From Candidatus Limnocylindria bacterium (GTDB lineage: Bacteria; Chloroflexota; Limnocylindria; QHBO01), in contig DASSCI010000039.1 in assembly GCA_035697845.1 (NCBI GenBank), positions 4,590-68,589 of the forward strand: a DNA stretch of 64,000 bases, given 5' to 3'. The stretch's first letter is position 1. Every line of letters begins with the position of its first letter. The translations under genes and the position numbers were made by a program. The notes below the pieces were generated by a model. The model was given only the letters and a program-made list of their open reading frames with translations. It made no database searches and was not told the origin of the DNA. Below are positions 11,056 to 63,391 of this stretch, piece by piece.

Positions 11056-11532
11056 ATGACGATCCACACCCCCATCGAGACGCGTGGCTCGGGCATCCCG
11101 GCCTGGGTCATCGGTCTCACCGTCTTCGTCCTGCTGGTCGGGGGCGTCTACCTCGCCTCCAACCTGGCGGGCGAGAATCCGGCCTTCGCCATTCCAGGCG
11201 CCAGCGCGCCAGCTCCCGAGGGCAGTGCCGGCGCCGATCCCGCCGTCGGCGAGCAGCTCGTCGGCTCGGTCACGCCGGCATGCACCGCCTGCCATGGCGC
11301 CGACCTGAGCGGCTCGGGCAATTTCCCGAGCCTGCACGGGGTGAACGACGGCCCGGTCAGCGAGAACCTCCAGCAGCTGGCCACCGACCACCCCGACGAT
11401 TGGATTCAGCTCTGGATCGACGGCACCACGCCCGAGACCGAGGGCCTCGACCGCGGCGGCATGCCAGCCTTCGGCGAGCAGCTCTCGCCGGACCAGATCG
11501 ACTCGATCGTCGCCTACCTCAAGAGCCTTTAG
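11056..11532 (+). CDS. Membrane-anchored mono-haem class I cytochrome c
   Basis: N-terminal TM (IGLTVFVLLVGGVYLA) and a single CTACH haem-binding motif. C-terminal half is characteristic of cyt c (PAFGEQLSPDQIDSIVAYL). Confidence 0.75.
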   Translation: MTIHTPIETRGSGIPAWVIGLTVFVLLVGGVYLASNLAGENPAFAIPGASAPAPEGSAGADPAVGEQLVGSVTPACTACHGADLSGSGNFPSLHGVNDGPVSENLQQLATDHPDDWIQLWIDGTTPETEGLDRGGMPAFGEQLSPDQIDSIVAYLKSL

Positions 11533-16862: not shown

Positions 16863-17692
16863 TCGTAGACTGCGGTGAAGTCGACCGCCGGGTAGCGCTC
16901 GGCCAGCGCTTCGGTCACCCAGTGCAGGACGTCGGCGGGATCGTAGAAGGCGGCGATGACCTTGGCTTCCGTCACCGACAACCCAGGACGTTGTGCCTCA
17001 ACGCCGCCCACCACGTCCTCCGGTCGATCGGACAGGTCCAGCGACGTCTCGAAGCGGCCATCGGGCCGCAGGACGAGCACGTCCTCCGCTTCGTCGAGCA
17101 GCACCAGCTCGCCGGTCCGACGGAGTACCTCCTCGGCATTCGCGCTGAACTCGCGCAGGTGCTGCGCCTGGGCCGTCGAGAGCTGGAGGCGGTACGCATC
17201 GGCCAGCTGCCAGAGGCGCTGCGCGGCCAGGGTCTCCTGCTGCGATGGCGACAGATCCGCCTCCCAGTCGTCGCCGAACTCGCCGAGCTCCTCCTCGCGC
17301 TTGAGGTCGTCGGCAGCGACCAGGTGCGATGGGGCGTCGCGCGATGTCTCGATCAGCCAGGCGAAGATGTCGGCCGGGTTGTACAGCTCGACCAGCTCGC
17401 TGATCGTCTCGACCAGCTGCTCCTGGTCGTACCACTCGTTGTCCGCCGGATCCTGGTAGGTGAGCCGGGTGGTCCAGGTCTCGTCGACGGGGTGGTAGAG
17501 CAGGTAGTCCTGCTCGTCGTCGACCAGCTTGATGGGGCCGATCTCCCGCAACCGCTCGCGGTTCTGGTCCAGGAAGCGGCGCAGCTGCTCGGTGGCCTCG
17601 TACAGGAAGTCGCGGCGCTCCAGCTCCGCCTCGCCGGCCAGCTCGCGGAGGGCAACCAGTCGCGGCGACCCGCCGCCCGGTGAGCGGCTCAC
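16859..17692 (-). CDS. Acidic hypothetical protein with internally duplicated Y-[ND]-PAD-[IV]-x-x-W-[LV]-x-E motif
   Basis: GTG start overlaps the upstream stop (GTGA). The motif occurs twice: YNPADIFAWLIETS and YDPADVLHWVTEAL. No family recognised. Confidence 0.45.
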   Translation of the reverse strand: MSRSPGGGSPRLVALRELAGEAELERRDFLYEATEQLRRFLDQNRERLREIGPIKLVDDEQDYLLYHPVDETWTTRLTYQDPADNEWYDQEQLVETISELVELYNPADIFAWLIETSRDAPSHLVAADDLKREEELGEFGDDWEADLSPSQQETLAAQRLWQLADAYRLQLSTAQAQHLREFSANAEEVLRRTGELVLLDEAEDVLVLRPDGRFETSLDLSDRPEDVVGGVEAQRPGLSVTEAKVIAAFYDPADVLHWVTEALAERYPAVDFTAVYE

Positions 17693-18015
17693 GGCTTGAA
17701 GACGAAGTCGGGGCCCATCCGCTCGCGCAGGAAGATCGTGTGCTTCGAGTCGAACACCGACTCGGCCACGCGGTGCCCGAAGCCGCGCATGGATGGATCG
17801 GCGTAGAGCTTGTCGAGCACCGCGTAATTCGGCAGGTCCACGATGATCACGTTGTTCCAGGTCGAGCCCTCGGTGACGTTGAACCAACCGACGAAGCGCA
17901 CGCCGTACTTCTCCTCCGTCTGACGGGCGGTCCTCGGAAAGATGTGGCGCATGCCGCGCTTGAAGATCGTGTCGCGGCCCTTGCGCACGTTGAAGAAGGT
18001 GACCATCAGGGGCAT
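17689..18015 (-). CDS. Small hypothetical protein (108 aa)
   Basis: MPLMVTFFNVRKG...; translationally coupled to the downstream acidic protein and pyrE. Confidence 0.45.
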   Translation of the reverse strand: MPLMVTFFNVRKGRDTIFKRGMRHIFPRTARQTEEKYGVRFVGWFNVTEGSTWNNVIIVDLPNYAVLDKLYADPSMRGFGHRVAESVFDSKHTIFLRERMGPDFVFKP

Positions 18016-18099
18016 CAGGCTTGCCCTCGATTCGACTGCGAGATCACGACGCCGATGATGAACCTCACCCAGAGGCCGAGAGAGGCCACGTTCCGCTTC

Positions 18100-18414
18100 T
18101 CATTCATCGGTCTGGTCCTCATCCGTGCTGATTATCCGAGTCTGCGGCTTCGCGATGCCGGTCTGGCGGCCCCTTCCGCGCCGCCGGTCGGCGAAGAAGA
18201 CGCGCAGCAGGAAGACGCTGGTCATGCTGACGAAGAAGAGCAGGAACAGTGCTGCAAAGAGCAGGACCGCCAGCAGCCAGACCGGCCAGTTGAACGTGAA
18301 CAGCCCGATCGGGATGAGGAAGAGCAGGATCGCGAACAAGATCGCCTGTGTGATGAAGCATCCGAATCCCGGGCCCTCGTTCGGGTCGAGGTCCTCGTTG
18401 TAGCGAACTGACAA
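18100..18414 (-). CDS. Small membrane protein (2-3 TM), hypothetical
   Basis: Hydrophobic core ILFAILLFLIPIGLFTF...LLAVLLFAALFLLFFV with charged tails. Confidence 0.4.
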   Translation of the reverse strand: MSVRYNEDLDPNEGPGFGCFITQAILFAILLFLIPIGLFTFNWPVWLLAVLLFAALFLLFFVSMTSVFLLRVFFADRRRGRGRQTGIAKPQTRIISTDEDQTDE

Positions 18415-18513
18415 GCCGATTCCTCAAGGAATTTGGCGGGGCGTGGGCGGTCCAGATCGTCCCACATCCGGCTCGTCCACGCTCCTGCCGTGCCTGGCCG
18501 TTGATGAGCGCGA

Positions 18514-40281: not shown

Positions 40282-41694
40282 ATGGCCCTTCCGAATCCCG
40301 CCCTGACCCAGATTCCAGACTCATACAAGTACGGCTGGAGCGATCCCGAGGCGACGCACCTGAACATCGCCCGCAAGGGCCTTTCGGCCGAGATCGTCGA
40401 GGAGATCAGCCGTTTCAAGGGCGAGCCGGAGTGGATGACGAAGCTTCGCCTCAAGGCCTATCGGCACTTCGAGGCGCGGCCGATGCCGAACTGGGGCGCC
40501 GACCTGTCGGCCATCGACTTCCAGGACATCTACTACTACATCGCGCCGACCGACAAGGCGGTCCAGAGCTGGGACGACGTGCCCGACTACATCCGGCGCA
40601 CGTACGACAAGCTCGGCATCCCGGAGGCGGAGAAGAAGTACCTCGCCGGTGTCGGCGGCCAGTACGACTCCGAGGTCGTGTACCACAACATCCGCGAGGA
40701 CCTCGAGAAGCAGGGCGTCATCTTCCTCGGCACCGATGAGGCCCTCAAGAAGCACCCGGACATCTTCCTCGAGCACTTCGGGACCGTCATCCCGGCCAAC
40801 GACAACAAGCTGGCCGCGCTGAACACGGCGGTCTGGTCGGGCGGATCGTTCATCTACGTGCCGCCGGGCGTGCACGTCGAGCTGCCGCTGCAGGCCTACT
40901 TCCGGATCAACACCGAGAACATGGGCCAGTTCGAGCGGACGCTGATCATCGCCGACGAGGGGTCGAGCGTTCACTACGTCGAGGGCTGCACCGCGCCGAC
41001 GTACTCGACCGCTTCCCTCCACAGCGCCGTGGTCGAGATCATCGTCAAGAAGGGCGCGCGGGTGCGCTACACGACGATCCAGAACTGGAGCCACAACGTC
41101 TACAACCTCGTCACCAAGCGCGCCGTGGCGCACGAGGACGCGGTCATGGAGTGGGTCGACGGCAATCTCGGCTCGCGCGTGACGATGAAGTACCCGTCCA
41201 TCTACCTGGTCGGTGAGCGGGCGCACGGCGAGGTGCTGTCCATCGCCTTCGCGGGCGACGAGCAGCACCAGGACGCCGGCGGCAAGGTCATCCACGCGGC
41301 GCCGCACACGACCTCGCTCATCACCTCGAAGTCGATCAGCAAGGGCTCCGGCCGCACCTCGTACCGCGGCCTGGTCAAGGTCTATCCCGGCTGCGAGAAG
41401 TCGAAGTCGACGGTCCGTTGCGACGCCCTGATCCTCGACGAGCAGGCGCGCTCCGACACGTATCCGTACATGGAGATCGACGAGGAGGACGTCACCATCG
41501 GCCACGAGGCGACCGTCTCGAAGGTCGGCAGCGAGCAGCTCTTCTACCTCATGAGCCGCGGCCTGTCGGAGGCCGAAGCCGCCGCGATGATCGTGAACGG
41601 CTTCATCGAGCCAATCGTCAAGGAGCTGCCGATGGAGTACGCGGTCGAGATGAACCGCCTCATCCAGCTCCAGATGGAAGGCGCCGTCGGGTGA
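40282..41694 (+). CDS. sufB: Fe-S cluster assembly protein SufB
   Basis: 470 aa; highly conserved SufB sequence (e.g. ...[30 protein letters not shown]...). Confidence 0.9.
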
Positions 41695-42929
41695 CGACCG
41701 CGACCACGGCGATCAGCCTCGACGCGGCCGCAATCGCCGATATCTCCAAGCAGCTCGACGAGCCCGACTGGCTGCGCGACCTCCGTGCCGCGTGGTGGGA
41801 GCGCGCGAGCTCCACCCCGCCTCCCACCGGACACGAGGAGGAATGGCGGCGCACGGACCTCGCCGCGCTCCCGCGTGATGGTCGGCTGCTGACGGATGCC
41901 CCACGGCTTGACGTCAGCGGCGTCGCCGAATCCGGCGTCATCCTGACCGACCTGCGGACGGCCGTCGCCGAGCACCCCGAGCTCGTGCGCCGGTACCTCG
42001 GCCAGGGCCAGCCGCAGGCTTCGCACGCGCACTTCTGGGCGCTTGCGCAGGCGGCCTGGACGGGCGGCCTCTTCTGCTACGTGCCGAAGGGCGTCCACGT
42101 TGACGGCACGCTCGTCGCGCGCACCGCACTGCCGGCCTCGGATGTCACCTACCTCCCGGTCAGCCTGGTGGTCGCGGAGGAGGGCAGCAGCGTGTCGCTC
42201 CTCCAGCAGGTCACGTCACCGGACGGCGCCGCCGGCTGGTTCGGTGGGATCGTCGAGATCATCGCCGGCGAGGGCGCCGAGGTGCGCTTCGCCAACCTCC
42301 AGCAGCTCGGTGACGAGACGTGGAACGTCGGTGCGCAGCGCGTGGTGGTCGGGCGCGACGCGCACGTCACGACGCTCGACGCCGAGGTCGGCTCGCGCAT
42401 CACCAAGGTCGGCCTGGATGCCGAGATGGCGGGAAAGGGTGGGACCAGCAAGCTGCTCGGCCTGCTCGCCGCGGGCGACGACCAGCACATCGACATCAAC
42501 GCGCACCAGGTCCTTGCGGCGGACTACACCACCAGTGACCTGCTCTATCTCTCGGCGCTGTACGACCGCGCCCGCGCGGCGTTCTACGGCGTCACGCTGG
42601 TCGAGCAGGGCACGCGCCAGACGAGCTCCTACCAGGAGTGCCGCAACCTGCTCCTGAGCCCCAACGCCGGCGCCGAGCCGATCCCGGTGCTCGAGATCAA
42701 GGCCAACGACATCCTGCGCTGTGGCCACGGTGCGACGGCCGGGGCGATCGACCCCATCCAGCTGTTCTACGCCCAGACCCGCGGCCTGGATCCCGATGCC
42801 GCCGAGCGCATGATCGTGCGCGGCTTCTTCGAGCAGGTCGTTTCCCAGATCCACGACGAGACCATCCGCGCCGAGGTGCTGACCGCCCTCGCCGGCCGCA
42901 TCGGATTCGCTGACGAGGACGCGGCATGA
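41691..42929 (+). CDS. sufD: Fe-S cluster assembly protein SufD
   Basis: SufBD-family C-terminal beta-helix region. GTGA overlap with sufB. Confidence 0.85.
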
Positions 42930-43267
42930 CGGCCCTCGAGCGCGCGACGGGCGGATTCGTGGCCGTGGCACGCGTCGGCGACGTCGAGCCGGGCACCGTC
43001 CGCGTGGTGGAGGTCGACGGACGTTCGCTGTGCCTCGGGCTGACCGAGGATGGCGAGTGGGGAGCCATCGACAACATCTGCACGCACGACGGCGGCACCC
43101 TCGGCGAGGGCGAGCTCGACGACTCGGCCGTCGAGTGCCCGCGTCATGGCGGCCGCTTCGACCTGTTCACGGGACGCGTCCTGGCGCTGCCGCCCGTTCG
43201 GCCCGTGACGGCCTACGAGACGGAAGTCGATGGCGACGACGTGCTCGTCAGGATCGGCCCCGCATGA
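42926..43267 (+). CDS. Rieske [2Fe-2S] ferredoxin-like protein
   Basis: CTHDGG...CPRHGGRFD gives the Rieske CxH...CxxH motifs. Confidence 0.85.
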   Translation: MTALERATGGFVAVARVGDVEPGTVRVVEVDGRSLCLGLTEDGEWGAIDNICTHDGGTLGEGELDDSAVECPRHGGRFDLFTGRVLALPPVRPVTAYETEVDGDDVLVRIGPA

Positions 43268-43769
43268 AGATCAGCACCCGCACCGAATACGGCATTCGCG
43301 TCCTGGTGACGCTGGCGCGCATCGAGGATGACACGAGCTGCCTGTCGCTGACGGAGATCGCGCGCCGCGAGAAGCTGCCGCACGCCTACCTCGAGCAGCT
43401 CGTCGGCGACCTGCGCCGCGCGGAGCTCGTGACGGCAACTCGCGGCCAGTCCGGCGGGTATCGGCTCAACCGACCTGCCGATGAGATTCACATGTCCGAT
43501 GTGATTCGCGCCCTCGAGGGACCGCTGCTGGAGATGCCGTGCGCCGGTGCCGAGGACCTGGAGCACTGCGACCGGCCTCAGCCGTGCAGCGTGCACGAGG
43601 TCTTCAAGCGCGTCTACGAGTCGCTGTCCGTATCGCTCGGCTCCACCAACCTGGCCGACGTGGCCGCGAGCGCAGGCGGGCCTCCCTATCCACCCCAGGT
43701 GCGCCGGCGCCGAGCCGCCGAGCACGCCGCCCTCCTCGATCCGAAGGCATCCCAGCAGGCAAGGAACGC

Positions 43770-43773
<4 letters not shown>
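43264..43773 (+). CDS. Rrf2 family transcriptional regulator (IscR/SufR-like) with three Cys in the C-terminal half
   Basis: N-terminal Rrf2 HTH (MKISTRTEYGIRVLVTLA). C-terminal half contains CAG...C...C. Confidence 0.8.
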
Positions 43774-44630
<857 letters not shown>

Positions 44631-44637
44631 GCCTTCG

Positions 44638-45897
44638 ATGGCCGTCGGGCAGGTCGGCGCCCCGCTCCTGGACGGGGCCGCGCTGCGGGCCGACTTCCCG
44701 GTCTTCGAGCGTCCGACGGCGTCCGGCCGGCCGCTGGCCTATCTCGACTCCGCGGCGTCGTCGCAGAAGCCACGGGCCGTCATCGAAGCCCTGGCCGATG
44801 CGTACGGCCATCACTACGCCAACGTCCATCGCGGCATCTACGAGCTGAGCGTCGACGCCGACTCGCGCTACGAGGCTGCGCGCACCGCCGTCGCCCGTTT
44901 CATCGGCGCATCCAGCCCGCGCGAGGTCGTCTTCGTCCGCAACGCGACCGAGGCGCTCAACCTGGTGGCGGCGAGCTGGGGTGGCGCGAACCTCGGCCCG
45001 GGCGACCTCGTCCTCTCGACCGAGATGGAGCACCACGCCAATCTCGTGCCCTGGCAGCAGGTCGCGCGCGGAACCGGCGCCTCGCTGGAGTACGTCGCCA
45101 TCACCGATGACGGCCGCCTGGATCTCGACGACCTGCGCGCGCGCCTGGCGCGCGGCCCGAAGCTGTTGGCCCTCGCGCACGTCAGCAACTCGCTCGGGAC
45201 CATCAACCCGGTGGCTGAGATCACGCGCATGGCGCACGAGGCCGGCGCCCTGGTGGTCCTGGACGCCGCCCAGAGCGTGCCCCACATGCCCGTCGACGTG
45301 ACTGCGCTCGGCGTCGACTTCGCGGCGCTATCGGGGCACAAGATGCTGGGACCGTCGGGCATCGGCGCGCTGTGGGGCCGCCGGGAGCTGCTCGATGCGA
45401 TGCCACCCTTCCTGACCGGCGGCAGCATGATCACGCGCGTCACGCTGGAGGGTGCCGAGTGGAACGAGGTGCCGTGGAAGTTCGAGGCCGGCACCCCTGC
45501 CATCGCCGAGGCGATGGGACTCGCCGCGGCCATCGACTACCTCCAGAGCATTGGCATGGACCGCGTCCGCGCCCACGAGCGCTTCCTGTTCGAGCGTGCC
45601 TGGGCGTCGCTCGAGGACATGCCCGGCGTCCGCCTTCTTGGCCCGGCCTCTCCGGACGAGCATGCGGGCGTCATCGGCTTCGTGGTGGATGGCATCCATC
45701 CGCACGACGTGGCCACCATCCTCGACAGCGAGGGAATCGCCGTTCGGGCCGGCCACCACTGCGCTCAGCCGGTCATGCTGCGCTACGACCTGCCGGCCAC
45801 CACGCGCGCCAGCTTCTACGTCTACAACGACCTCGATGATGTCGAGCGCCTCGTCGACGGCATTCGCACGACACAGCAGGTCTTCGGCACCGCATGA
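44638..45897 (+). CDS. sufS: Cysteine desulfurase SufS
   Basis: Class-V aminotransferase with PLP lysine region SGHKMLGPSGIGALWG and catalytic Cys in RAGHHCAQP. Confidence 0.9.
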   Translation: MAVGQVGAPLLDGAALRADFPVFERPTASGRPLAYLDSAASSQKPRAVIEALADAYGHHYANVHRGIYELSVDADSRYEAARTAVARFIGASSPREVVFVRNATEALNLVAASWGGANLGPGDLVLSTEMEHHANLVPWQQVARGTGASLEYVAITDDGRLDLDDLRARLARGPKLLALAHVSNSLGTINPVAEITRMAHEAGALVVLDAAQSVPHMPVDVTALGVDFAALSGHKMLGPSGIGALWGRRELLDAMPPFLTGGSMITRVTLEGAEWNEVPWKFEAGTPAIAEAMGLAAAIDYLQSIGMDRVRAHERFLFERAWASLEDMPGVRLLGPASPDEHAGVIGFVVDGIHPHDVATILDSEGIAVRAGHHCAQPVMLRYDLPATTRASFYVYNDLDDVERLVDGIRTTQQVFGTA

Positions 45898-46334
45898 CCG
45901 GCGACAACCTGTACCGCGACTTCATCCTCGAGCACTATCGAGAACCTCACAACCGAGGCGTGCTCGAGCCGCACGACCTGCACTTCGCCGATTCCAACCC
46001 GACCTGCGGCGATGAGATGAGCATGACCCTGCGCCTCGATGAGGCCAGGGAGCGCGTTGCCGACGTCGCCTTCGATGGACGGGGATGCGCCATCAGCCAG
46101 GCATCGGCCTCGATCCTGACCGATGACCTGCGCGGGCTGACGCTGGGCGAGCTTCGAGAGCTCGATCCGGCCGAGGTCGTCGCCAACCTCGGCGTGCCGA
46201 TCGGCCCGGCCCGGCTGAAGTGCGCGCTGCTCGTGTACAAGGTCCTCCAGGGTGCGGTGCGAGGAGCGGCGGTCGGCTGGCCCGAGGAGGCGGACGTCCT
46301 GGCCGGCGGGAACGCCGGCGGCTCGGCGCCGTGA
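45894..46334 (+). CDS. sufU: SufU/IscU-like zinc-dependent sulfur transferase
   Basis: Conserved Cys motifs NPTCGDEM, GRGCAIS and KCALL. Confidence 0.85.
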   Translation: MTGDNLYRDFILEHYREPHNRGVLEPHDLHFADSNPTCGDEMSMTLRLDEARERVADVAFDGRGCAISQASASILTDDLRGLTLGELRELDPAEVVANLGVPIGPARLKCALLVYKVLQGAVRGAAVGWPEEADVLAGGNAGGSAP

Positions 46335-47446
46335 GCGTTCGCAACGTCGGTGCGGCCGAGGCGGTCGCGCTCGCGCGGGCCGGCTATCGGGTCATCGACG
46401 TGCGCGAGCCGGTCGAATGGGATGCCGGTCACATCGCCGATGCGACGCTGCTGCCGCTCGGCGACGTCGTCGAGCGCATCAACCGGGTGGCCCCCGATCG
46501 CGACGCTCCACTGCTGCTGCATTGCAGTGCCGGTGCTCGCTCGGCGCGCGCTGCCGGGTGGCTGGTCGACCTCGGCTACACGAACGTCGCCAACCTTGAC
46601 GGCTCGATCGACGGCTGGCGTGAGCAGGGTGGGGCCTGGGTGGAGCCGACGACCTCGTTGACGGACGCCCAACGGCGTCGATACGCCCGTCAGCTCGTCC
46701 TGCCCGAGGTCGGCCCGGAGGGTCAGCGGCAGCTGCTCGAGGCCCGCGTGCTGGTCGTGGGTGCGGGAGGGCTCGGCTCGCCCGTGGCCCTGTACCTGGC
46801 GGCGTCCGGCGTGGGCACCCTCGGGATCGTCGACGACGACGTGGTCGACGAGTCGAACCTCCAGCGGCAGGTCGTGCACGCCGCGGAACGGCTCGGAATG
46901 CGCAAGGTCGCCTCGGCAGCGGTGGCGGTGCGTGCGCTCAACCCCGAGACGAACGTGGTCGAGCACGACGCGCGCCTGAGCGCCGCCAACGTCGCCGATG
47001 TCATCGCCGGCTACGACCTCGTGGTCGACGGCACCGACAACCTCGACACCCGCTACCTGCTCAACGATGCTGCCGTCGCCACCGGCACGCCGGTGGTGCA
47101 CGGATCGGTATACCGATGGGATGGCCAGGTCACGACGCTCGTCCCGTTCGAGGGGCCCTGCTACCGATGCCTCCACCCGGTCCGGCCGCCCGACGATCTC
47201 GTGCTCGACTGCGACGTTGCGGGCGTGCTGGGCGTGCTGCCCGGCATCGTCGGCACCATCCAGGCTGCTGAGGCGCTGAAGCTCCTGCTTGGCGTGGGCG
47301 AGCCACTGGTCGGCCGGATGCTCATCTACGACGCGCTCGGGGCCCGATTTGACGAGATCGCCATCCCGCGCGACCCGGCGTGCGTGACCTGCGGGTCGGC
47401 CGCGGCTCCCTGGAGGCATCCGGCCATCGCGCCCGCCTCGGCGTGA
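46331..47446 (+). CDS. Rhodanese-ThiF/MoeB fusion (E1-like sulfur-carrier adenylyltransferase/sulfurtransferase; rhodanese domain N-terminal)
   Basis: Rhodanese with active Cys (LLLHCSAGARSA) followed by ThiF motif (VLVVGAGGLGSP) and a CxxC...CxxC zinc site. GTGA overlap with sufU. Confidence 0.8.
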   Translation: MSVRNVGAAEAVALARAGYRVIDVREPVEWDAGHIADATLLPLGDVVERINRVAPDRDAPLLLHCSAGARSARAAGWLVDLGYTNVANLDGSIDGWREQGGAWVEPTTSLTDAQRRRYARQLVLPEVGPEGQRQLLEARVLVVGAGGLGSPVALYLAASGVGTLGIVDDDVVDESNLQRQVVHAAERLGMRKVASAAVAVRALNPETNVVEHDARLSAANVADVIAGYDLVVDGTDNLDTRYLLNDAAVATGTPVVHGSVYRWDGQVTTLVPFEGPCYRCLHPVRPPDDLVLDCDVAGVLGVLPGIVGTIQAAEALKLLLGVGEPLVGRMLIYDALGARFDEIAIPRDPACVTCGSAAAPWRHPAIAPASA

Positions 47447-47472
47447 CGCCCGCGGCACCGGTCGCGAGCCTC

Positions 47473-47880
47473 GTGCTCCCGGTGGATCTCGCCGCGCGCA
47501 TGCTCGAGCATGCTCGAGCCGAGCTGCCGAACGAGGCATGCGGCCTGGTGGGCGGTGACCCGTCCACCAGGCGAGCGGTCAGCTTCCATCCGGCTCGCAA
47601 CCGGCACGCCAGCCCGCTGCGATACGACATTCATCCGGAGGACCTCGTCCGGATCGTCTTCACGATCGAGTCGGCCGGCGAAGCGCTCCTGGCCGTCTTC
47701 CATTCGCACCCGCGATCGGCAGCCGTTCCGTCGCCGACGGATGTGCGCGAGGCCCGATACGAGGCCGTTCACCTGATCGCCACGCTGGCCGACCCAGGGG
47801 GCGATGCCGCGGACGCGCTCCGCGGCTGGATCGTGAAGGACGGCGCGGTATCGGAGGTCGCGATCCGGATCAGCGCGTGA
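47473..47880 (+). CDS. JAMM/MPN+ metalloprotease (Mec+/QbsD-like)
   Basis: JAMM motif E...HSHPRSAAVPSPTD. The start is uncertain (GTG 47473 or ATG 47500). Confidence 0.7.
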   Translation: MLPVDLAARMLEHARAELPNEACGLVGGDPSTRRAVSFHPARNRHASPLRYDIHPEDLVRIVFTIESAGEALLAVFHSHPRSAAVPSPTDVREARYEAVHLIATLADPGGDAADALRGWIVKDGAVSEVAIRISA

Positions 47881-50434
47881 GCGCGCGGTGCAGGAAGGCC
47901 GCCATCTGCTCACGGCTCACGGCACTGCCCGGGCAGTAGGTGGACGGACCACATCCGCGCGTGATCCCGCTCGCGGCGAGCGCGTTGATGTCGGCCTGGT
48001 GCGGCGAGGCCGAGTCATCGGTGAAGAAGTCGGTCCCGGACGCCGGGAGCCTGAGAGCCCGCACCAGGAACGAGGCCATCTCCTCGCGCGTGACCGCCCG
48101 GTCCGGGCAGTAGACGCGCCACCCGCAGCCGAGCGTGATGCCTGCCGCCGCCAGGGCGTTGATGTCGGCCTGGTGCAGGCCCGCGTCGTCGTCGAAGTAG
48201 TCGGTGCCCGCACCCGGCAGGCCGAGCGCGCGGACGAGGAACGAGGCCATCTGCGCACGAGTCACGGCGTCCGTGGGGCAGAACATCCCGCTTCCGCAGC
48301 CGATGGTGATGGCGCGCTGCGCGATCCACAGGATGTCGTCATAGAACGGCGATCCGGCGGCATCCGAGAAGGGGCTCGTCATGGCCCACGCCAGCCCGAA
48401 CGGCTCCTCGGCAGCGTTGAAGCGCGGCTGAAGGATCTCGATCCGCATCACTCCCGTGGCTGCCGCCGAGATGTCGACCACCTCGTACGGGTTGTCGTAG
48501 CTGATCGAGAGGCCCGGTGCGCCGCTCGGCATGGTCACGCGCAGGTCGAGATCGGCGGTGAGCACGTCCGCCTTCCCCAGGTTCGTGCCCGAGGTATGGC
48601 TGCTCCAGGCGAGGGCGACCCGAACCTGCTGGCCGGCCACGACCGGGACCTCCTGCACGATCGACTCGCCGGGATGCGCGGCGCCGATGCGGTAGCCGCC
48701 CCATGGACCGTTGCCGTTGACCAGGATCCGGTTCGACCACACCGCCGACGCCGTTCCGACGCCCTCGTGATCGTTGTTCGCGCCGCCGCCGGGCAGCGGC
48801 GTGCGGCGAAGTGCTCCGGCCATGAGGATGGCGCGCGTCCCTTCCGGCCACACCGCCAGCGACGGTGCACGAGCCAGCAGCTGCGCCGCCAGGCCGGCGA
48901 CGATCGGGCTGGCCACGCTGGTGCCATCGCCCGAGATGCCGTTGGCGGTTCGCACGCTCACCGCGGGAGCGGAGAGGTTCGGCTTGTTGTAGTCGCCGTG
49001 AGGGTTCCATGCCGTACCGCCCAGGTCGACGTAGTTCGCGCCGTTGACGCCGGGCCGATACCACAGGATGTCGTCGGCGGTGCCGGCGGAGTTGCGGTCG
49101 TCGATGCCGCCGACGGTCAGCACGTTGTATCCGGTGCCCGGCGAGACGACGTTCCAGTTCCCGAAGGTGGTGAAGTTTCCGGACGAGGCGACGACGAGGC
49201 GGTTGCCCTCCCAGCCGATCGAGTCGAAGTAGCGACGCGCCTCCTCCGCGCCCTGCGCGGTGTCCTGGCCGATGCTGGCGTTGAGGATGTCGGCGTTCCC
49301 GCCGCCCGGTGCAACGGCCCAGTCCGCGGCGGCGATGATGGCCCGGTCGTAGGCCAGGCTCGGCGTGTAGCCACCGGTCCCGGCCGAGACGATGACCGCG
49401 CCGGGAGCGACGCCGCCGTACGTCCCGTTCTGGCTGGCGATCGCACCCGCGACCCAGGTGGGATGCCCGCCGACGACGGTCGTTCCGCTGGTCGAATAGC
49501 TGGCGGCGACCTTGCCCGCCAGGTCGCCCGAGTTCGAGACGTTGTGGTACTCCACGATGCCGACGCGGACGCCGCTGCCCTGGTCGCCGCCGTCGCCCGT
49601 CCAATCGGCGCCGATCGCCGGGCCGGCGGAGGACATCTGCGCCTCCCATTGCTCCTCGAGGCCCAGGCTCAGGACGTCGGCGCGCGCGGCGAGCCCCGCC
49701 ACCGCCGGGGCGGGCACGTCCAGGAACACGAGCGGGGCGGAGGTGCTGGCGTAGCCGATGCCGCCGCCGGCGGCCTCCACCGCCGGACGGAACGCGTTGG
49801 CGGCCGCCTCGTAGGTCGCCCGCCGCGCCTCCCACAGCTCGGCGCGCAGGGCGCGGACCTGCTCGATCGATTCGGCCATTGGCCGGCCGGCGACCCAGGT
49901 GATCTCCGGATGTGCGTCGCGCACCGCGGCCTCCGCCGCGGCCGGATCGGCATCCAGCCAGACGGCCACGCGCAGCGAGTCGGGCTTGCCGCCGGCGACG
50001 GCTGCCTGGAGTGCGGCATCCGCCTTCCGCTCCAGCGCGGGGAGATCCTTGGCGGCTGCCGCCGAGCGCTCCTCGCGCAGGCCCGCTCCGGCCGTGACGC
50101 CGGCCGCAGGATCGCTGTCGACGGCGACGATCTCACCGGTCGTCCGATCCAGGAACTTCCCGGCCCAGAGCGTCGCATCGGAGTGCTCGACCGCGGCGTC
50201 GCGTTCGTAGAGCAGCTCGAAGTCGTTCGGCGATCCGCCGCGCGTCTCGGCCAGATGGCGTGCCGCAGCCGCAGCTGGCGGCTCCGCGGCACGCGCCGTC
50301 CCGCCGGGCACCAATACCGTCCCACCCACGACCAGCGAAATCACGAGCGCCCCCCCACGGGCGAGCGCGCGCGGTCTGCGACTGCGCACTTTCAGCCTCT
50401 CTCGTTCGTAAGACGCCGTATGACAGTCTTGCAT
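47870..50434 (-). CDS. Secreted S8 subtilisin-like peptidase with three C-terminal Cys-containing SLH-like repeats
   Basis: Signal peptide after MQDCHTASYERERLKVRSRRPRALARGGALVISLVVGG. S8 Ser motif GTSVASPIVAG. Three ~60-aa C-terminal repeats follow the pattern F.DD....H..DI..LA..GIT.GCG...YCP...VTR.QMA.FL.RAL.LP. Confidence 0.75.
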   Translation of the reverse strand: MQDCHTASYERERLKVRSRRPRALARGGALVISLVVGGTVLVPGGTARAAEPPAAAAARHLAETRGGSPNDFELLYERDAAVEHSDATLWAGKFLDRTTGEIVAVDSDPAAGVTAGAGLREERSAAAAKDLPALERKADAALQAAVAGGKPDSLRVAVWLDADPAAAEAAVRDAHPEITWVAGRPMAESIEQVRALRAELWEARRATYEAAANAFRPAVEAAGGGIGYASTSAPLVFLDVPAPAVAGLAARADVLSLGLEEQWEAQMSSAGPAIGADWTGDGGDQGSGVRVGIVEYHNVSNSGDLAGKVAASYSTSGTTVVGGHPTWVAGAIASQNGTYGGVAPGAVIVSAGTGGYTPSLAYDRAIIAAADWAVAPGGGNADILNASIGQDTAQGAEEARRYFDSIGWEGNRLVVASSGNFTTFGNWNVVSPGTGYNVLTVGGIDDRNSAGTADDILWYRPGVNGANYVDLGGTAWNPHGDYNKPNLSAPAVSVRTANGISGDGTSVASPIVAGLAAQLLARAPSLAVWPEGTRAILMAGALRRTPLPGGGANNDHEGVGTASAVWSNRILVNGNGPWGGYRIGAAHPGESIVQEVPVVAGQQVRVALAWSSHTSGTNLGKADVLTADLDLRVTMPSGAPGLSISYDNPYEVVDISAAATGVMRIEILQPRFNAAEEPFGLAWAMTSPFSDAAGSPFYDDILWIAQRAITIGCGSGMFCPTDAVTRAQMASFLVRALGLPGAGTDYFDDDAGLHQADINALAAAGITLGCGWRVYCPDRAVTREEMASFLVRALRLPASGTDFFTDDSASPHQADINALAASGITRGCGPSTYCPGSAVSREQMAAFLHRALTR

Positions 50435-50501
50435 AGCGGCGATCCTCACTATCGGCTCAGCACGCGTCGGCGGCAATGGGCAATCGGTGTAGCCTTCGTC
50501 C

Positions 50502-51638
50502 ATGACGACTCCGGCGTTTGACGTAGGTGGCTCCGTTGCAACGCGCCACCGCGAGCGGCTGCAGCGCGCCGCCGCGCAGGCGCGCGAGACCGGCGTGGAC
50601 GTGATGCTCGTCACGCCGTCGAAGGACTACGCCTATCTGCTGGGCTACGCGGCGCCGGCCATGGAGCGCCTGACCTGCCTGGTCGTCCCCGCGGATGGCA
50701 ACGCGACGCTGGTCCTGCCGCGACTGGAGGAGCCGCTCGCCCGCCACGAGCTCGGCGACCTCGCCGATGAGCTCGAGATCGTGCCGTGGGCGGAAACCGA
50801 GGACCCCATCCGCACCGTCCAGACCCTGGTTGGATCGGCCGGCCGGGTGGCCGTGCAGGACCAGATGTGGGCGCGCTTCGCCCTGGCCCTGCAGGCCGCG
50901 CTCGACCCGGCCCAACTGGTGGCGGCTGGACCGATCCTCAGCTCGCTTCGGCGGGTCAAGGACGTCGATGAGGTCGATCGCCTTCGCGCGGCGGCCGCCG
51001 CGGCGGACCAGGCGATGCTGGCCATCACCGGCGAGCGCCTCTCCGGGCGCACCGAGCGCGACGTGAGCACACGGGTCCGTGAGCTGCTGCTCGAGGCCGG
51101 CCACGACGAGGCGGGCTTCGCCATCGTCGCATCCGGGCCGAACGCGGCGAGCCCGCATCATGCGGCCGGCGATCGGGAGATCGAGGCCGGTGATGCGATC
51201 GTGCTCGACATCGGCGGCTTCCGCGCCGGCTACGGCAGCGACACGTCACGCACGGCGTTCGTCGGCGAGCCACCGCCCGACTTCGCCGCGCTCTACGAGG
51301 TGCTGCGCCACGCCCAATCGGCCGCGTGCGACGCCGTCCGCCCGGGCGTCCCGGCGGCGCAGATCGACCGCGTGGCGCGCGACATCATCACCGATGCCGG
51401 CTACGGCGACGCATTCCTGCACCGGACCGGCCACGGCATCGGCATGGAAACCCACGAGGAGCCGTACATCGTCTCGTCCAACGCCGAACCGCTGGTTGCC
51501 GGCAACGCCTTCAGCGTCGAGCCTGGCATCTATATCCGTGACACGTGGGGCGCGCGCATCGAGGACATCGTGGTCTGCACCGAGTCCGGTGGCGAGCGCC
51601 TCAACACCACCTCGACGCAGCTCTACCTCGTCTCCTGA
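50502..51638 (+). CDS. M24 family Xaa-Pro aminopeptidase/dipeptidase
   Basis: Pita-bread fold metal ligands (DIGGFRAGYGSD...HRTGHGIGMETHEEP...SVEPG). Confidence 0.8.
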   Translation: MTTPAFDVGGSVATRHRERLQRAAAQARETGVDVMLVTPSKDYAYLLGYAAPAMERLTCLVVPADGNATLVLPRLEEPLARHELGDLADELEIVPWAETEDPIRTVQTLVGSAGRVAVQDQMWARFALALQAALDPAQLVAAGPILSSLRRVKDVDEVDRLRAAAAAADQAMLAITGERLSGRTERDVSTRVRELLLEAGHDEAGFAIVASGPNAASPHHAAGDREIEAGDAIVLDIGGFRAGYGSDTSRTAFVGEPPPDFAALYEVLRHAQSAACDAVRPGVPAAQIDRVARDIITDAGYGDAFLHRTGHGIGMETHEEPYIVSSNAEPLVAGNAFSVEPGIYIRDTWGARIEDIVVCTESGGERLNTTSTQLYLVS

Positions 51639-59271: not shown

Positions 59272-60291
59272 GTGACCGCCGCGGTTGGCAGGACGCCGCT
59301 CGTCGCCCTTGATCGGCTGGCAGCGGACGTCCGGCCGCGCATCGTGGCCAAGCTGGAGCACATGAACCCCGGCGGGTCCGTGAAGGACCGGATCGCGGTG
59401 CCGATGATCGAGGCTGCCGAGCGCGCGGGTCTGCTCAAGGCGGGCGGAACGATCGTGGAGCCCACGTCCGGCAATACCGGCGTCGGGCTCGCGCAGGCGG
59501 CCGCAGCGCGAGGCTATCGGTGCATCTTCGTGATGGCGGACAAGCAGTCGGAGGAGAAGCGGGCGCTGCTGCGGGCGTATGGCGCCGAGGTCGTCGTCTG
59601 CCCCACCGATGTCGACCCGGGTGACGAGCGTTCCTACTACCGCGTCTCCGATCGGCTGGCGCGCGACATTCCGGGCGCCTGGAAGCCCGACCAGTACTCG
59701 AACCCGGCCAACCCACAGGCCCATTACGAGACGACCGGCCCCGAGATCTGGGAGGCGACCGAGGGGCGCATCACCCACCTGGTGGTCGCGCTCGGCACCG
59801 GTGGGACCGTGTCGGGCGTCGGCCGCTACCTCAAGGAGCGCAACTCGTCCGTCGTCGTCGTTGGGGCCGATCCGGACGGCTCGGTGTATTCCGGTGCCGC
59901 GCCGCACCCATATTTGACCGAGGGCATCGGCGAGGACTTCTGGCCGACAACCTACGACACCTCGATCTGCGACGTGGTGATCCGCGTCAGCGACCGCGAC
60001 TCGATGCTCACGGCGCGCGTTGCGACGGCGCGCGAGGGGATCCTGATGGGGGAGTCGGCGGGGACGGCGCTGTGGGCCGCGCTGCAGCATGCCCGCGAGG
60101 TCGACGATCCCGATGCCCTGTTCGTGGTGCTGCTGCCGGACTCCGGTCGCAACTACGTCGGCAAGCTCTACGACGATGCGTGGCTGCGTGAGAACAGTCT
60201 GCTTGGCGTGGACGAGGAGGTGGCGGCCTACGACTGGCGGGAGACGTCGCCGGCGGTGGTCCTGACTGGCGACGAGGTCCCGCGCGGCTGA
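59272..60291 (+). CDS. Cysteine synthase / cystathionine beta-synthase family PLP enzyme
   Basis: PLP-lysine motif NPGGSVKDR and glycine loop GTGGTVSG. GTG start. Confidence 0.8.
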   Translation: MTAAVGRTPLVALDRLAADVRPRIVAKLEHMNPGGSVKDRIAVPMIEAAERAGLLKAGGTIVEPTSGNTGVGLAQAAAARGYRCIFVMADKQSEEKRALLRAYGAEVVVCPTDVDPGDERSYYRVSDRLARDIPGAWKPDQYSNPANPQAHYETTGPEIWEATEGRITHLVVALGTGGTVSGVGRYLKERNSSVVVVGADPDGSVYSGAAPHPYLTEGIGEDFWPTTYDTSICDVVIRVSDRDSMLTARVATAREGILMGESAGTALWAALQHAREVDDPDALFVVLLPDSGRNYVGKLYDDAWLRENSLLGVDEEVAAYDWRETSPAVVLTGDEVPRG

Positions 60292-62218: not shown

Positions 62219-63391
62219 GTGGCAGAATGGCCGCCGATGACCGACCGATTCGAGACCCTGGCCGTTCACGCTGGCGCCGCGCCCGATCCGGAGACCGGCG
62301 CGGTGGTGCCGCCGATCCAGATGAGCACCACCTTCAAGCAGGACGGCGTCGGCGGCCTGCGCGGCGGCTTCGAGTACGGACGCTCCGGAAACCCGACGCG
62401 AAAGGCGTTGGAGGAGGCCATCTGCGTCCTGGAGAACGGTGCTCACGGTCTCGCCTACGCGTCAGGACTGGCGGCCACCCAGAACATCCTGTACCTGCTC
62501 GAGCCGGGCGACCGGCTGCTCATGAGCGATGACGTCTACGGCGGCACCTGGCGCCTGGCTGACAAGGTCTGGCGCCGTTACGGGATCGAGACCGATACGA
62601 TCGACCTCCGCGACCTGGACGCCGTCGCGACCACCTTGTCGAGCGCGAAGCCCCCACGCATGGTGTGGATCGAGACTCCGTCCAACCCGCTTCTGAAGGT
62701 CATCGACATCAGCGCCGTGGCCCGCCTGGCGGCCGTGGCGGGCGCGATCACGGTGGTCGACAACACATTCGCCACGCCGTACCTGCAACGGCCGTTGGAG
62801 CTCGGCGCCGACCTGGTCCTGCATTCGGCCACGAAGTACCTGGGCGGCCACTCCGACGTCATCGGCGGGCTGGTGGTCACACGCTCCGACGAGCTGGCCG
62901 AGCGGCTGCGCTTCCACCAGAACGCCGCCGGCGCGGTGCCGAGTCCCTTCGACTGCTTCCTGGTCATGCGAGGCCTCCGCACGCTCGCGGTTCGCATGGA
63001 GCGGGCATGCGCCAACGCGCTTGTCCTGGCCCTGTGGCTCAGCGAGCGACCCGGCGTCGCCGCGGTGCATTACCCCGGTCTACCGGACCATCCGGCCGCC
63101 GAGCTGGTCGAGCGGCAGATGCGCCTGCCCGGCGCCATGCTCAGCTTTGAGATGAGCGGTGGGGAGGAGGCGGCACGGCGATTCGCGGCCGCCACCCGCC
63201 TGTTCACGCTGGCCGAATCGCTCGGTGCGGTCGAGTCGCTGATCGAGCTGCCAGCACCGATGACCCACGCATCCGTCGCCGAGTCCGCCCTGGCCGTGTC
63301 GCCCTCACTGGTGAGGCTGTCGGTCGGCATCGAAAACGCTGGCGACCTCCAGTCGGATCTCGAGGCGGCCTTCCGAAGCGCGGGCTCGTGA
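62219..63391 (+). CDS. Cys/Met metabolism PLP-dependent enzyme (cystathionine gamma-synthase/gamma-lyase family)
   Basis: PLP lysine motif HSATKYLGGHSDVIGG. The start may be 62237. Confidence 0.8.
   Translation: MAEWPPMTDRFETLAVHAGAAPDPETGAVVPPIQMSTTFKQDGVGGLRGGFEYGRSGNPTRKALEEAICVLENGAHGLAYASGLAATQNILYLLEPGDRLLMSDDVYGGTWRLADKVWRRYGIETDTIDLRDLDAVATTLSSAKPPRMVWIETPSNPLLKVIDISAVARLAAVAGAITVVDNTFATPYLQRPLELGADLVLHSATKYLGGHSDVIGGLVVTRSDELAERLRFHQNAAGAVPSPFDCFLVMRGLRTLAVRMERACANALVLALWLSERPGVAAVHYPGLPDHPAAELVERQMRLPGAMLSFEMSGGEEAARRFAAATRLFTLAESLGAVESLIELPAPMTHASVAESALAVSPSLVRLSVGIENAGDLQSDLEAAFRSAGS

Follow-up and report, generated by a model that had tools for sequence, protein, structure and literature searches.

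The last two genes of a suf operon

The window, a 64,000-nt stretch of contig DASSCI010000039.1 to whose numbering all coordinates below refer, contains a nine-gene operon (40282-47880) comprising sufB, sufD, a Rieske gene, an Rrf2 gene, sufC, sufS and sufU, which ends with the two genes considered here, one for an E1-like protein with a rhodanese and a ThiF domain (hereafter E1) and one for a JAMM-type metalloprotease (hereafter JAMM). Seven of the eight junctions in the operon are 4-nt ATGA or GTGA overlaps. The features of the locus are as follows, where L numbers denote related loci and ORF stands for open reading frame.

40282..41694, + strand: sufB, first gene of the operon; the syntenic L001 gene has SufBD_N and SUFBD_core, and ATG 40282 is the sole start candidate
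41691..42929, + strand: sufD; SUFBD_core on the syntenic L001 gene, GTGA overlap with the sufB stop
42926..43267, + strand: Rieske [2Fe-2S] protein, inside the suf operon; Pfam Rieske 6e-18, ATGA overlap with the sufD stop
43264..43773, + strand: Rrf2-family regulator, within the suf operon; 106 bits on NCBIfam rrf2_super (cut-off 73), ATGA overlap
43770..44630, + strand: sufC (ABC ATPase); 98% identity to the L001 gene with ABC_tran
44638..45897, + strand: sufS, cysteine desulfurase; Pfam Aminotran_5 7e-146
45894..46334, + strand: sufU, scaffold / sulfur acceptor; Pfam NifU_N 5.5e-27, NCBI HET6649170.1 (iron-sulfur cluster assembly scaffold protein)
46331..47446, + strand: rhodanese-ThiF E1 (putative sulfur-carrier adenylyltransferase/sulfurtransferase), 371 aa; NF006444, Pfam, HET6649171.1
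46376..46624, + strand: Rhodanese domain of E1, residues 16-98; Pfam, Cys65 codon at 46523-46525
46682..47383, + strand: ThiF/MoeB adenylation domain of E1, residues 118-351; Pfam, motif conservation
46760-46777, 47159-47170 and within 47207-47224, + strand: E1 motifs, namely the Gly-rich loop, the first CxxC and the crossover-loop Cys294
47381-47392, + strand: second CxxC of E1 (residues 351-354), at the C-terminal edge of the Pfam ThiF match
47443..47880, + strand: JAMM/MPN+ metalloprotease (Mec+/desampylase-like), 145 aa; Pfam Prok-JAB 2.6e-19, GTGA overlap
47533-47535 and 47701-47742, + strand: JAMM motif codons, Glu31 and HSHx7Sx2D
47870..50614, - strand: convergent S8 protease with SLH domains, 914 aa; ORF list, Pfam Peptidase_S8 and SLH on the syntenic L001 and L085 genes

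The E1 gene is one unbroken ORF, in which Pfam places the Rhodanese domain (3.8e-16) in front of the ThiF domain (1.4e-79). Its GTG start overlaps the sufU stop TGA (46332-46334) in a GTGA, and the NCBI gene call for the identical protein (HET6649171.1, 371 aa, "MoeB", on a 91-kb contig of a Candidatus Limnocylindria metagenome-assembled genome, MAG) has the same start. Since no internal start divides the ORF (46331-47446) into two genes, since the NCBIfam model NF006444 spans both domains and since all E1 homologues are 362-389 aa long and have both domains, we conclude that the fusion is real. The active-site loop of the rhodanese (C65-S-A-G-A-R-S, nt 46523-46543) appears catalytic in form, with Cys65, Arg70 and Ser71 of the C65xxGxRS motif unchanged in all 81 aligned relatives. 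The Gly-rich loop (G144xGGxG), both CxxC pairs (C277xxC and C351xxC) and Cys294 are likewise present and unchanged in 80 to 81 of these 81. Among the structure matches, the solved structures closest to E1 are E. coli MoeB (1JW9, 191 bits) and ThiF (1ZFN), both covering the E1 part only, and none has an N-terminal rhodanese followed by an E1 domain.

GTG 47443, which overlaps the E1 stop (47444-47446), is the most likely start of the JAMM gene. Its protein has Glu31 and the HSHx7Sx2D motif (residues 87-100) intact, a motif kept in all five members of the clade described below, and on NCBIfam it matches the desampylase model alone, at 69 bits (cut-off 130). A preliminary description of this DNA had read the gene pair as a single-ORF fusion with an N-terminal catalytic rhodanese, coupled by GTGA to the sufS-sufU end and followed by a JAMM gene, all of which is borne out.

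The same description had set the reversed domain order against that of established MoeZ proteins, but this order is not an unrecognised one. E1 scores 468.9 bits on NF006444 (PRK08762.1, equivalog "MoeB"; cut-off 449), with residues 1-358 matching profile positions 12-371 of 387, and its relative at L013 scores 494.9 bits. The model for MoeZ (NF005902), whose rhodanese is C-terminal, gives 346.4 bits against a cut-off of 647, its best stretch covering the E1 domain only (103-353), and the UbaA model gives 334.1 bits against 450. The N-terminal-rhodanese order thus belongs to an already curated and annotated family and is not new; in domain order and length NF006444/PRK08762 equals the window E1, and no difference between them is detectable in sequence. 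In a genome scan, the matches of all 80 loci found begin between query residues 1 and 57, in 78 of the loci no later than residue 34, so that the N-terminal rhodanese is covered wholly or for the most part. These loci are assigned to Chloroflexota, Actinomycetota (Gaiellales, Solirubrobacterales, Thermoleophilia) and Myxococcota. In the literature we found nothing on PRK08762 or on Limnocylindria together with sulfur carriers, and among publications on an N-terminal rhodanese with ThiF/MoeB none that visibly describes this architecture.

As regards the neighbouring genes, the Rieske and Rrf2 genes (42926-43773) lie between sufD and sufC, an order kept in relatives, and the Rrf2-family regulator does not reach the cut-off of any of the CymR, IscR and SUF-regulator models. 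The S8/SLH protease gene overlaps the last 11 nt of the JAMM gene and adjoins it in most Limnocylindria loci; it delimits the operon and lies outside the system.

The cysO-cysM cassette of relatives and its loss

We mapped SufC, SufS, SufU, E1, CysO, CysM and JAMM by tblastn on 82 related loci. About 45 Limnocylindria/Chloroflexota loci have the order sufC-sufS-sufU-E1-cysO-cysM-JAMM, six actinobacterial loci (Gaiellales, Thermoleophilia) have E1-cysO-cysM-JAMM, another actinobacterial group has E1-cysO, and the Myxococcota loci have E1 alone. The orthologous E1 has cysO directly downstream in about 60 related loci. At L002, where E1 is 67% identical and the contig is 631 kb long, a PALP gene and a 279-bp gap separate E1 from JAMM, and the gap contains a frameshifted cysO-like ORF.

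The carrier of the relatives is about 90 aa long, matches Pfam ThiS (4.7e-15) and exceeds the cut-off of the NCBIfam SAMP1 model (67 against 60). Among solved structures it is closest to an Amycolatopsis ThiS/MoaD-family protein (4N6E_B, 85 bits), which we take to be the Amycolatopsis CysO, and to CysO of Mycobacterium tuberculosis (3DWG_C, 75 bits). The accompanying pyridoxal phosphate enzyme is closest to M. tuberculosis CysM, an O-phosphoserine sulfhydrylase (3DKI/3DWG, 308 bits compared to at most 257 for CysK types). Of the 62 CysO sequences, 12 end at Gly-Gly, 44 have 1-13 further residues and 6 are fused to CysM; the tails past Gly-Gly therefore provide a clear processing role for the JAMM protease. 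The ancestral Limnocylindria arrangement was E1-cysO-cysM-JAMM at the end of sufB-sufD-Rieske-Rrf2-sufC-sufS-sufU, and it appears to have encoded a CysO/CysM/Mec+-type cysteine pathway. From what is known of these families, the ThiF domain would adenylate a small beta-grasp carrier at its C-terminal Gly in an ATP-dependent reaction, and the Cys65 persulfide of the rhodanese, which may be loaded by SufS/SufU or from thiosulfate, would turn the carrier adenylate into a thiocarboxylate. In the ancestral pathway, CysM would then have joined O-phosphoserine to the CysO-thiocarboxylate, and JAMM would have freed cysteine and trimmed the residues that follow Gly-Gly on most CysO precursors.

Several variants of this arrangement were observed. 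In-frame CysO::CysM fusions, from which JAMM would have to cut the carrier free, occur in Gaiellales/Thermoleophilia and at one Chloroflexota locus (L063, L064, L071, L073 and L080, as ORFs of about 400 aa just after E1, and L047 from 11167). In the Myxococcota loci L057 (6339-7433) and L074 (3759-4889), the gene after the E1 with N-terminal rhodanese is SufS-like (about 30% identical) and not cysO, which adds a further pairing of an E1 gene with a cysteine desulfurase gene. MAG CAVVPF01 (L009, L016) has two copies of E1-cysO-cysM-JAMM, one of them beside suf, which represents either a duplication or a mixed bin. The frameshifts of L002, in sufD (5301-6561) and in cysO (11131-11408), lie on a long-read contig and are most likely assembly indels and not pseudogenes.

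Functionally, the E1 is predicted to correspond to mycobacterial MoeZR, from which it differs in domain order, the rhodanese being C-terminal in MoeZR and N-terminal in the window E1. With M. tuberculosis MoeZR (Rv3206c) and CysO-CysM-Mec+ (Rv1335, Rv1336, Rv1334) the window shares the rhodanese E1 and the JAMM protein, whereas CysO and CysM are found in its relatives only. In M. tuberculosis, moeZ is unlinked to cysO-cysM-mec. In Limnocylindria, by contrast, the cassette includes the E1 gene and is attached to the suf operon; the window itself is devoid of cysO and cysM. Both MoaD and CysO receive their sulfur from MoeZR, the origin of the sulfur in MoeZR-type enzymes is stated as still unknown, and Mec+ of M. 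tuberculosis also frees cysteine from the CysO-cysteine adduct (PMC3227635).

Five distinct loci have sufU-E1-JAMM with nothing in between: the window, L083/L084 (E1 94% identical), L085/L086 (86%), L087 (84%) and L001 (83%). Among these members, which we refer to as the loss clade, E1 identities range from 81 to 94% and dS (synonymous substitutions per synonymous site) reaches about 0.7. In a neighbour-joining tree of the E1 protein, rooted on more distant cysO-cysM-bearing relatives, the window clade was monophyletic in all of 100 bootstraps and all loss lineages jointly in none, while L008 and L088 fell inside a cysO-retaining clade in 98 of the 100 and L019 was nested there, too. From this scatter we conclude that cysO and cysM were lost at least three times independently, and that the window lineage, to judge from the gene orders, deleted both genes from the ancestral cassette. 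At L008 (11113-11619), the first 24 codons of cysO (MSTVRVPLVLRANTGGSRIVDVSG...) are in frame with the JAMM gene, and this CysO::JAMM chimera looks like the scar of a deletion that took away the remainder of cysO together with the entire cysM, in a long-read MAG with indels elsewhere. L088 (3856-5379, P0115), where cysO and cysM are missing as well, encodes a single 507-aa Rhodanese-ThiF-JAB protein directly after sufU. The N-terminus of the L019 JAMM protein (VNPVRIPPGV) may be a second CysO scar, CysO beginning with xSxVRIPPVLR, or simply a JAMM N-terminus, since ordinary ones also read GLxIPxxVAEE.

Both states correspond to gene neighbourhoods defined by Iyer, Burroughs and Aravind in 2006, whose Table 1 lists an E1+rhodanese with a JAB peptidase alone as type 4b and, as type 4c, which includes Chloroflexus and Rubrobacter, the same with ThiS/MoaD and a cysteine synthase added (PMC1779556). 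The window, with E1 and JAMM overlapping by 4 nt and then a convergent S8 protease gene, falls under type 4b and its relatives under type 4c. Iyer et al. call the rhodanese domain carboxyl-terminal (PMC1779556). Beyond their account go the N-terminal position of the rhodanese, although this is curated in NCBIfam, the linkage of the cassette to suf across Limnocylindria, and the origin of 4b from 4c via repeated deletion.

Carrier search and the gene at 59272

A hidden Markov model (HMM) of about 55 CysO sequences, which may miss distant ThiS/MoaD relatives, gave a best E-value of 3.4 when run on every six-frame ORF of 25 aa or more in the window. Pfam found no ThiS, MoaE or ThiG on about 60 window ORFs with coding-like composition, short ones included, and among window ORFs of 55 aa or longer, a Gly-Gly close to the C-terminus occurred only in GC-rich noise and in SufU. 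On a conspecific contig, the approximately 10 kb to the right of the window contain beta-oxidation genes, a TetR gene and genes for a metallo-beta-lactamase-fold protein and citrate synthase, but no carrier. The earlier remark that no carrier is to be seen near 46.3-47.9 kb therefore stands, and it extends to the 64 kb of the window. Thus, of the components of a CysO-CysM-Mec+ pathway, the JAMM motif is present in the window, a CysO-type Gly-Gly carrier was not found there, and in place of a CysM-type sulfhydrylase the sole PALP gene of the window (59272-60291) is cystathionine beta-synthase (CBS)-like.

The C-terminus of SufU (46260-46334) has the tail ...WPEEADVLAGGNAGGSAP, and a Limnocylindria subclade has conserved a similar tail (...LAGANEGGSAP) at loci with and without cysO. 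The DNA that encodes this tail contains, in relatives, a GAGGG Shine-Dalgarno-like sequence in front of the E1 gene. The resemblance of the tail to the Gly-Gly end of a carrier is probably a coincidence, and we rejected the SufU tail (...LAGGNAGGSAP) as a cryptic substrate of E1 and JAMM, as it is conserved regardless of cysO and SufU has the NifU_N and not the beta-grasp fold.

The gene at 59272 had been put forward as a possible CysM-type acceptor of a carrier thiocarboxylate. It is 42% identical to CysM of the relatives, but it scores 403 bits against the M. tuberculosis CBS Rv1077 and at most 252 bits against any cysteine synthase, and over its catalytic part the CBS model TIGR01137 gives 443 bits compared to 270 for the cysM model. 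Moreover, the same CBS paralogue lies about 7-10 kb downstream at loci with a true cysM (L012, L014, L017, L023, L034, L036-L038). We therefore rejected the assignment as CysM; by its matches, the gene is predicted to encode the catalytic core of a CBS and to act in transsulfuration rather than in a thiocarboxylate route. The core has no C-terminal Bateman module. Beyond an aldehyde dehydrogenase gene follows a gene of the cystathionine gamma-synthase/lyase family (62237-63391; 546 bits on NF005871, cut-off 513), annotated to start at ATG 62237 and not at the upstream GTG 62219, and the two look like a transsulfuration pair.

The CysO/Mec+-type thiocarboxylate route suggested in the preliminary description is accordingly upheld for the ancestry, in that the relatives have cysO and cysM, but not for the present locus, which has neither gene and so encodes no thiocarboxylate cysteine route.

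Selection on the E1-JAMM pair and its probable present role

Next, we consider the selection acting on the two retained genes. Among the five loss-clade members, the ratio of nonsynonymous to synonymous substitutions (dN/dS, Nei-Gojobori) was 0.15-0.21 for E1, 0.16-0.26 for JAMM and 0.08-0.10 for SufS, and in cysO-cysM-retaining pairs of similar divergence it was 0.08-0.13 (in some 0.20-0.25) for E1 and 0.10-0.43 for JAMM. Thus, E1 and JAMM are under clear purifying selection in the loss clade, and so they probably serve a carrier that is encoded elsewhere. The window, L001 and L085/L086 retain the 4-nt overlap between the two genes.

We consider it probable that the E1-JAMM pair is a remnant of a suf-joined CysO/CysM cassette which still activates and processes one or several remote carriers. 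A precedent is MoeZR, a single E1 that serves both MoaD and CysO (PMC3227635). From the context, the present client of the pair would be at least one beta-grasp carrier elsewhere in the genome, e.g. MoaD or ThiS, which the JAMM protease would trim or recycle, and cysteine would come from other routes, e.g. the pair of CBS and cystathionine gamma-lyase at 59-63 kb.

Several points weigh against this interpretation. No carrier was found in the 64 kb of the window and the roughly 10 kb to its right, and we infer the present substrate. Without CysO and CysM, JAMM would have an evident job only if another carrier bore a C-terminal extension or formed adducts. The E1/SufS dN ratio is 2.6-fold in the loss clade and about 1 to 1.6-fold in most retaining pairs, and this faster evolution of E1 fits a partial, about twofold relaxation, so that a slow decay may be under way. 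Finally, the trees are neighbour-joining trees on one protein, and long-read MAGs with indel errors are among the related loci (L002, L008, L036, L045).

An extension of C-terminal carrier tails is known from the thio-siderophore systems PdtF/PdtG/PdtH and QbsC/QbsD/QbsE of Pseudomonas, which likewise have an E1-rhodanese fusion and a JAB protease, and whose ThiS/MoaD-like carrier bears a C-terminal extension that the JAB protease cuts off (PMC1779556 and general knowledge). These clusters make small-molecule thiocarboxylates and have AMP-ligase and CoA-transferase genes, whereas the scans of the window revealed neither gene.

It is conceivable, if unlikely, that the pair has a conserved job that is independent of CysO/CysM and tied to SUF, such as thiocarboxylation and processing of other beta-grasp proteins or a ubiquitin-like cycle of modification and removal under Fe-S stress. 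This would explain why, after at least three independent losses, E1 and JAMM are in every case still in place behind the suf genes, with a 4-nt overlap in at least three lineages, and why one lineage fused them.

A specific form of this, which we regard as improbable, is that E1 and JAMM activate and deconjugate a SAMP/TtuB/Urm1-like modifier that is put on proteins, possibly on SUF components. Indeed, next to the MoeB and MoeZ models, the window proteins come closest on NCBIfam to the archaeal UbaA and the desampylase models, the CysO of the relatives passes the SAMP1 cut-off, E1-JAB pairs and fusions are a hallmark of predicted bacterial conjugation systems (PMC1779556), and the pair was kept, and once fused, after the metabolic genes had been lost. 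Haloferax UbaA/SAMP1-3/HvJAMM1 and Thermus TtuC/TtuB/TtuD also provide examples of one E1 that serves several beta-grasp proteins in both sulfur transfer and conjugation, with JAMM reversing the conjugates. However, both scores of the window proteins are under the cut-offs (334 against 450 for UbaA, 69 against 130 for desampylase), and neither a modifier gene nor an E2-like gene was found nearby. Furthermore, UbaA and TtuC have no fused rhodanese, conjugation-type E1s never have a rhodanese according to Iyer et al. (PMC1779556), and the conserved and apparently catalytic rhodanese of the window E1 suggests sulfur chemistry.

That E1 and JAMM have been functionless since the deletion, and are still there because too little time has passed or because the suf transcript carries them along, seems quite improbable to us. 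The raised dN/dS of E1 and its raised dN ratio to SufS in the loss clade would fit such a decay, as would the failure of the window scans to find partner genes nearby. Against it, the ORFs are full-length in all five members despite their divergence, all catalytic residues are kept, the overlap persists in at least three members, dN/dS (0.15-0.26) is far below 1, and independent loss lineages retain both genes, one of them in fused form.

Finally, an active thiocarboxylate pathway for cysteine or a thio-cofactor at this locus, running from SufS via the rhodanese-E1 and an unseen carrier to the 59272 enzyme with JAMM releasing the product, is very improbable, since, although the ancestral cassette was apparently just such a pathway, E1 and JAMM are intact and the 59272 product resembles CysM, this gene fits CBS far better by all scores given above, occurs as a paralogue also downstream of true cysM genes and adjoins a cystathionine gamma-synthase/lyase-family gene, no CysO-like ORF was found in the window, and cysteine sulfur passed through SufS back to cysteine would bring zero net gain.

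The last point also concerns the proposal of the preliminary description that the route is fed by SufS, which was drawn from gene order alone and would return cysteine sulfur to cysteine; we do not uphold it. Loading of the rhodanese by SufS could be sensible for cofactors, while for cysteine synthesis it could merely recycle cysteine sulfur. In the cysO-bearing relatives, the suf linkage may instead serve to co-express a cysteine supply with the cysteine-consuming SUF system, which is at least as likely as feeding by SufS. The physical joining of a thiocarboxylate cysteine cassette to the suf operon across a whole Chloroflexota class suggests either an oxidation-resistant cysteine supply that is co-regulated with Fe-S assembly or the use of SufS as persulfide donor.

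To return to the remnant with a remote carrier, the repeated loss of cysO and cysM with retention of E1 and JAMM represents a natural experiment, which indicates a second client of both proteins. This bears on annotation. The name "MoeB" of NF006444 is an annotation by homology, yet in most of the relatives studied here the gene stands beside cysO and not moaD, and within its own class this E1 is mostly a putative activator of the CysO/CysM cysteine pathway. As this pathway is gone in the clade of the window, neither the label "MoeB" nor "cysteine biosynthesis" can safely be transferred. None of these results alters the current understanding of E1-like sulfur transfer, and they add a small evolutionary point in a known family.

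Elsewhere in the window, two small ORFs of 136 and 107 aa, without a Pfam match, are adjacent on the - strand (17689-18099 and 18100-18423); they combine a high third-position GC with an unusually low first-position GC (0.58-0.61).

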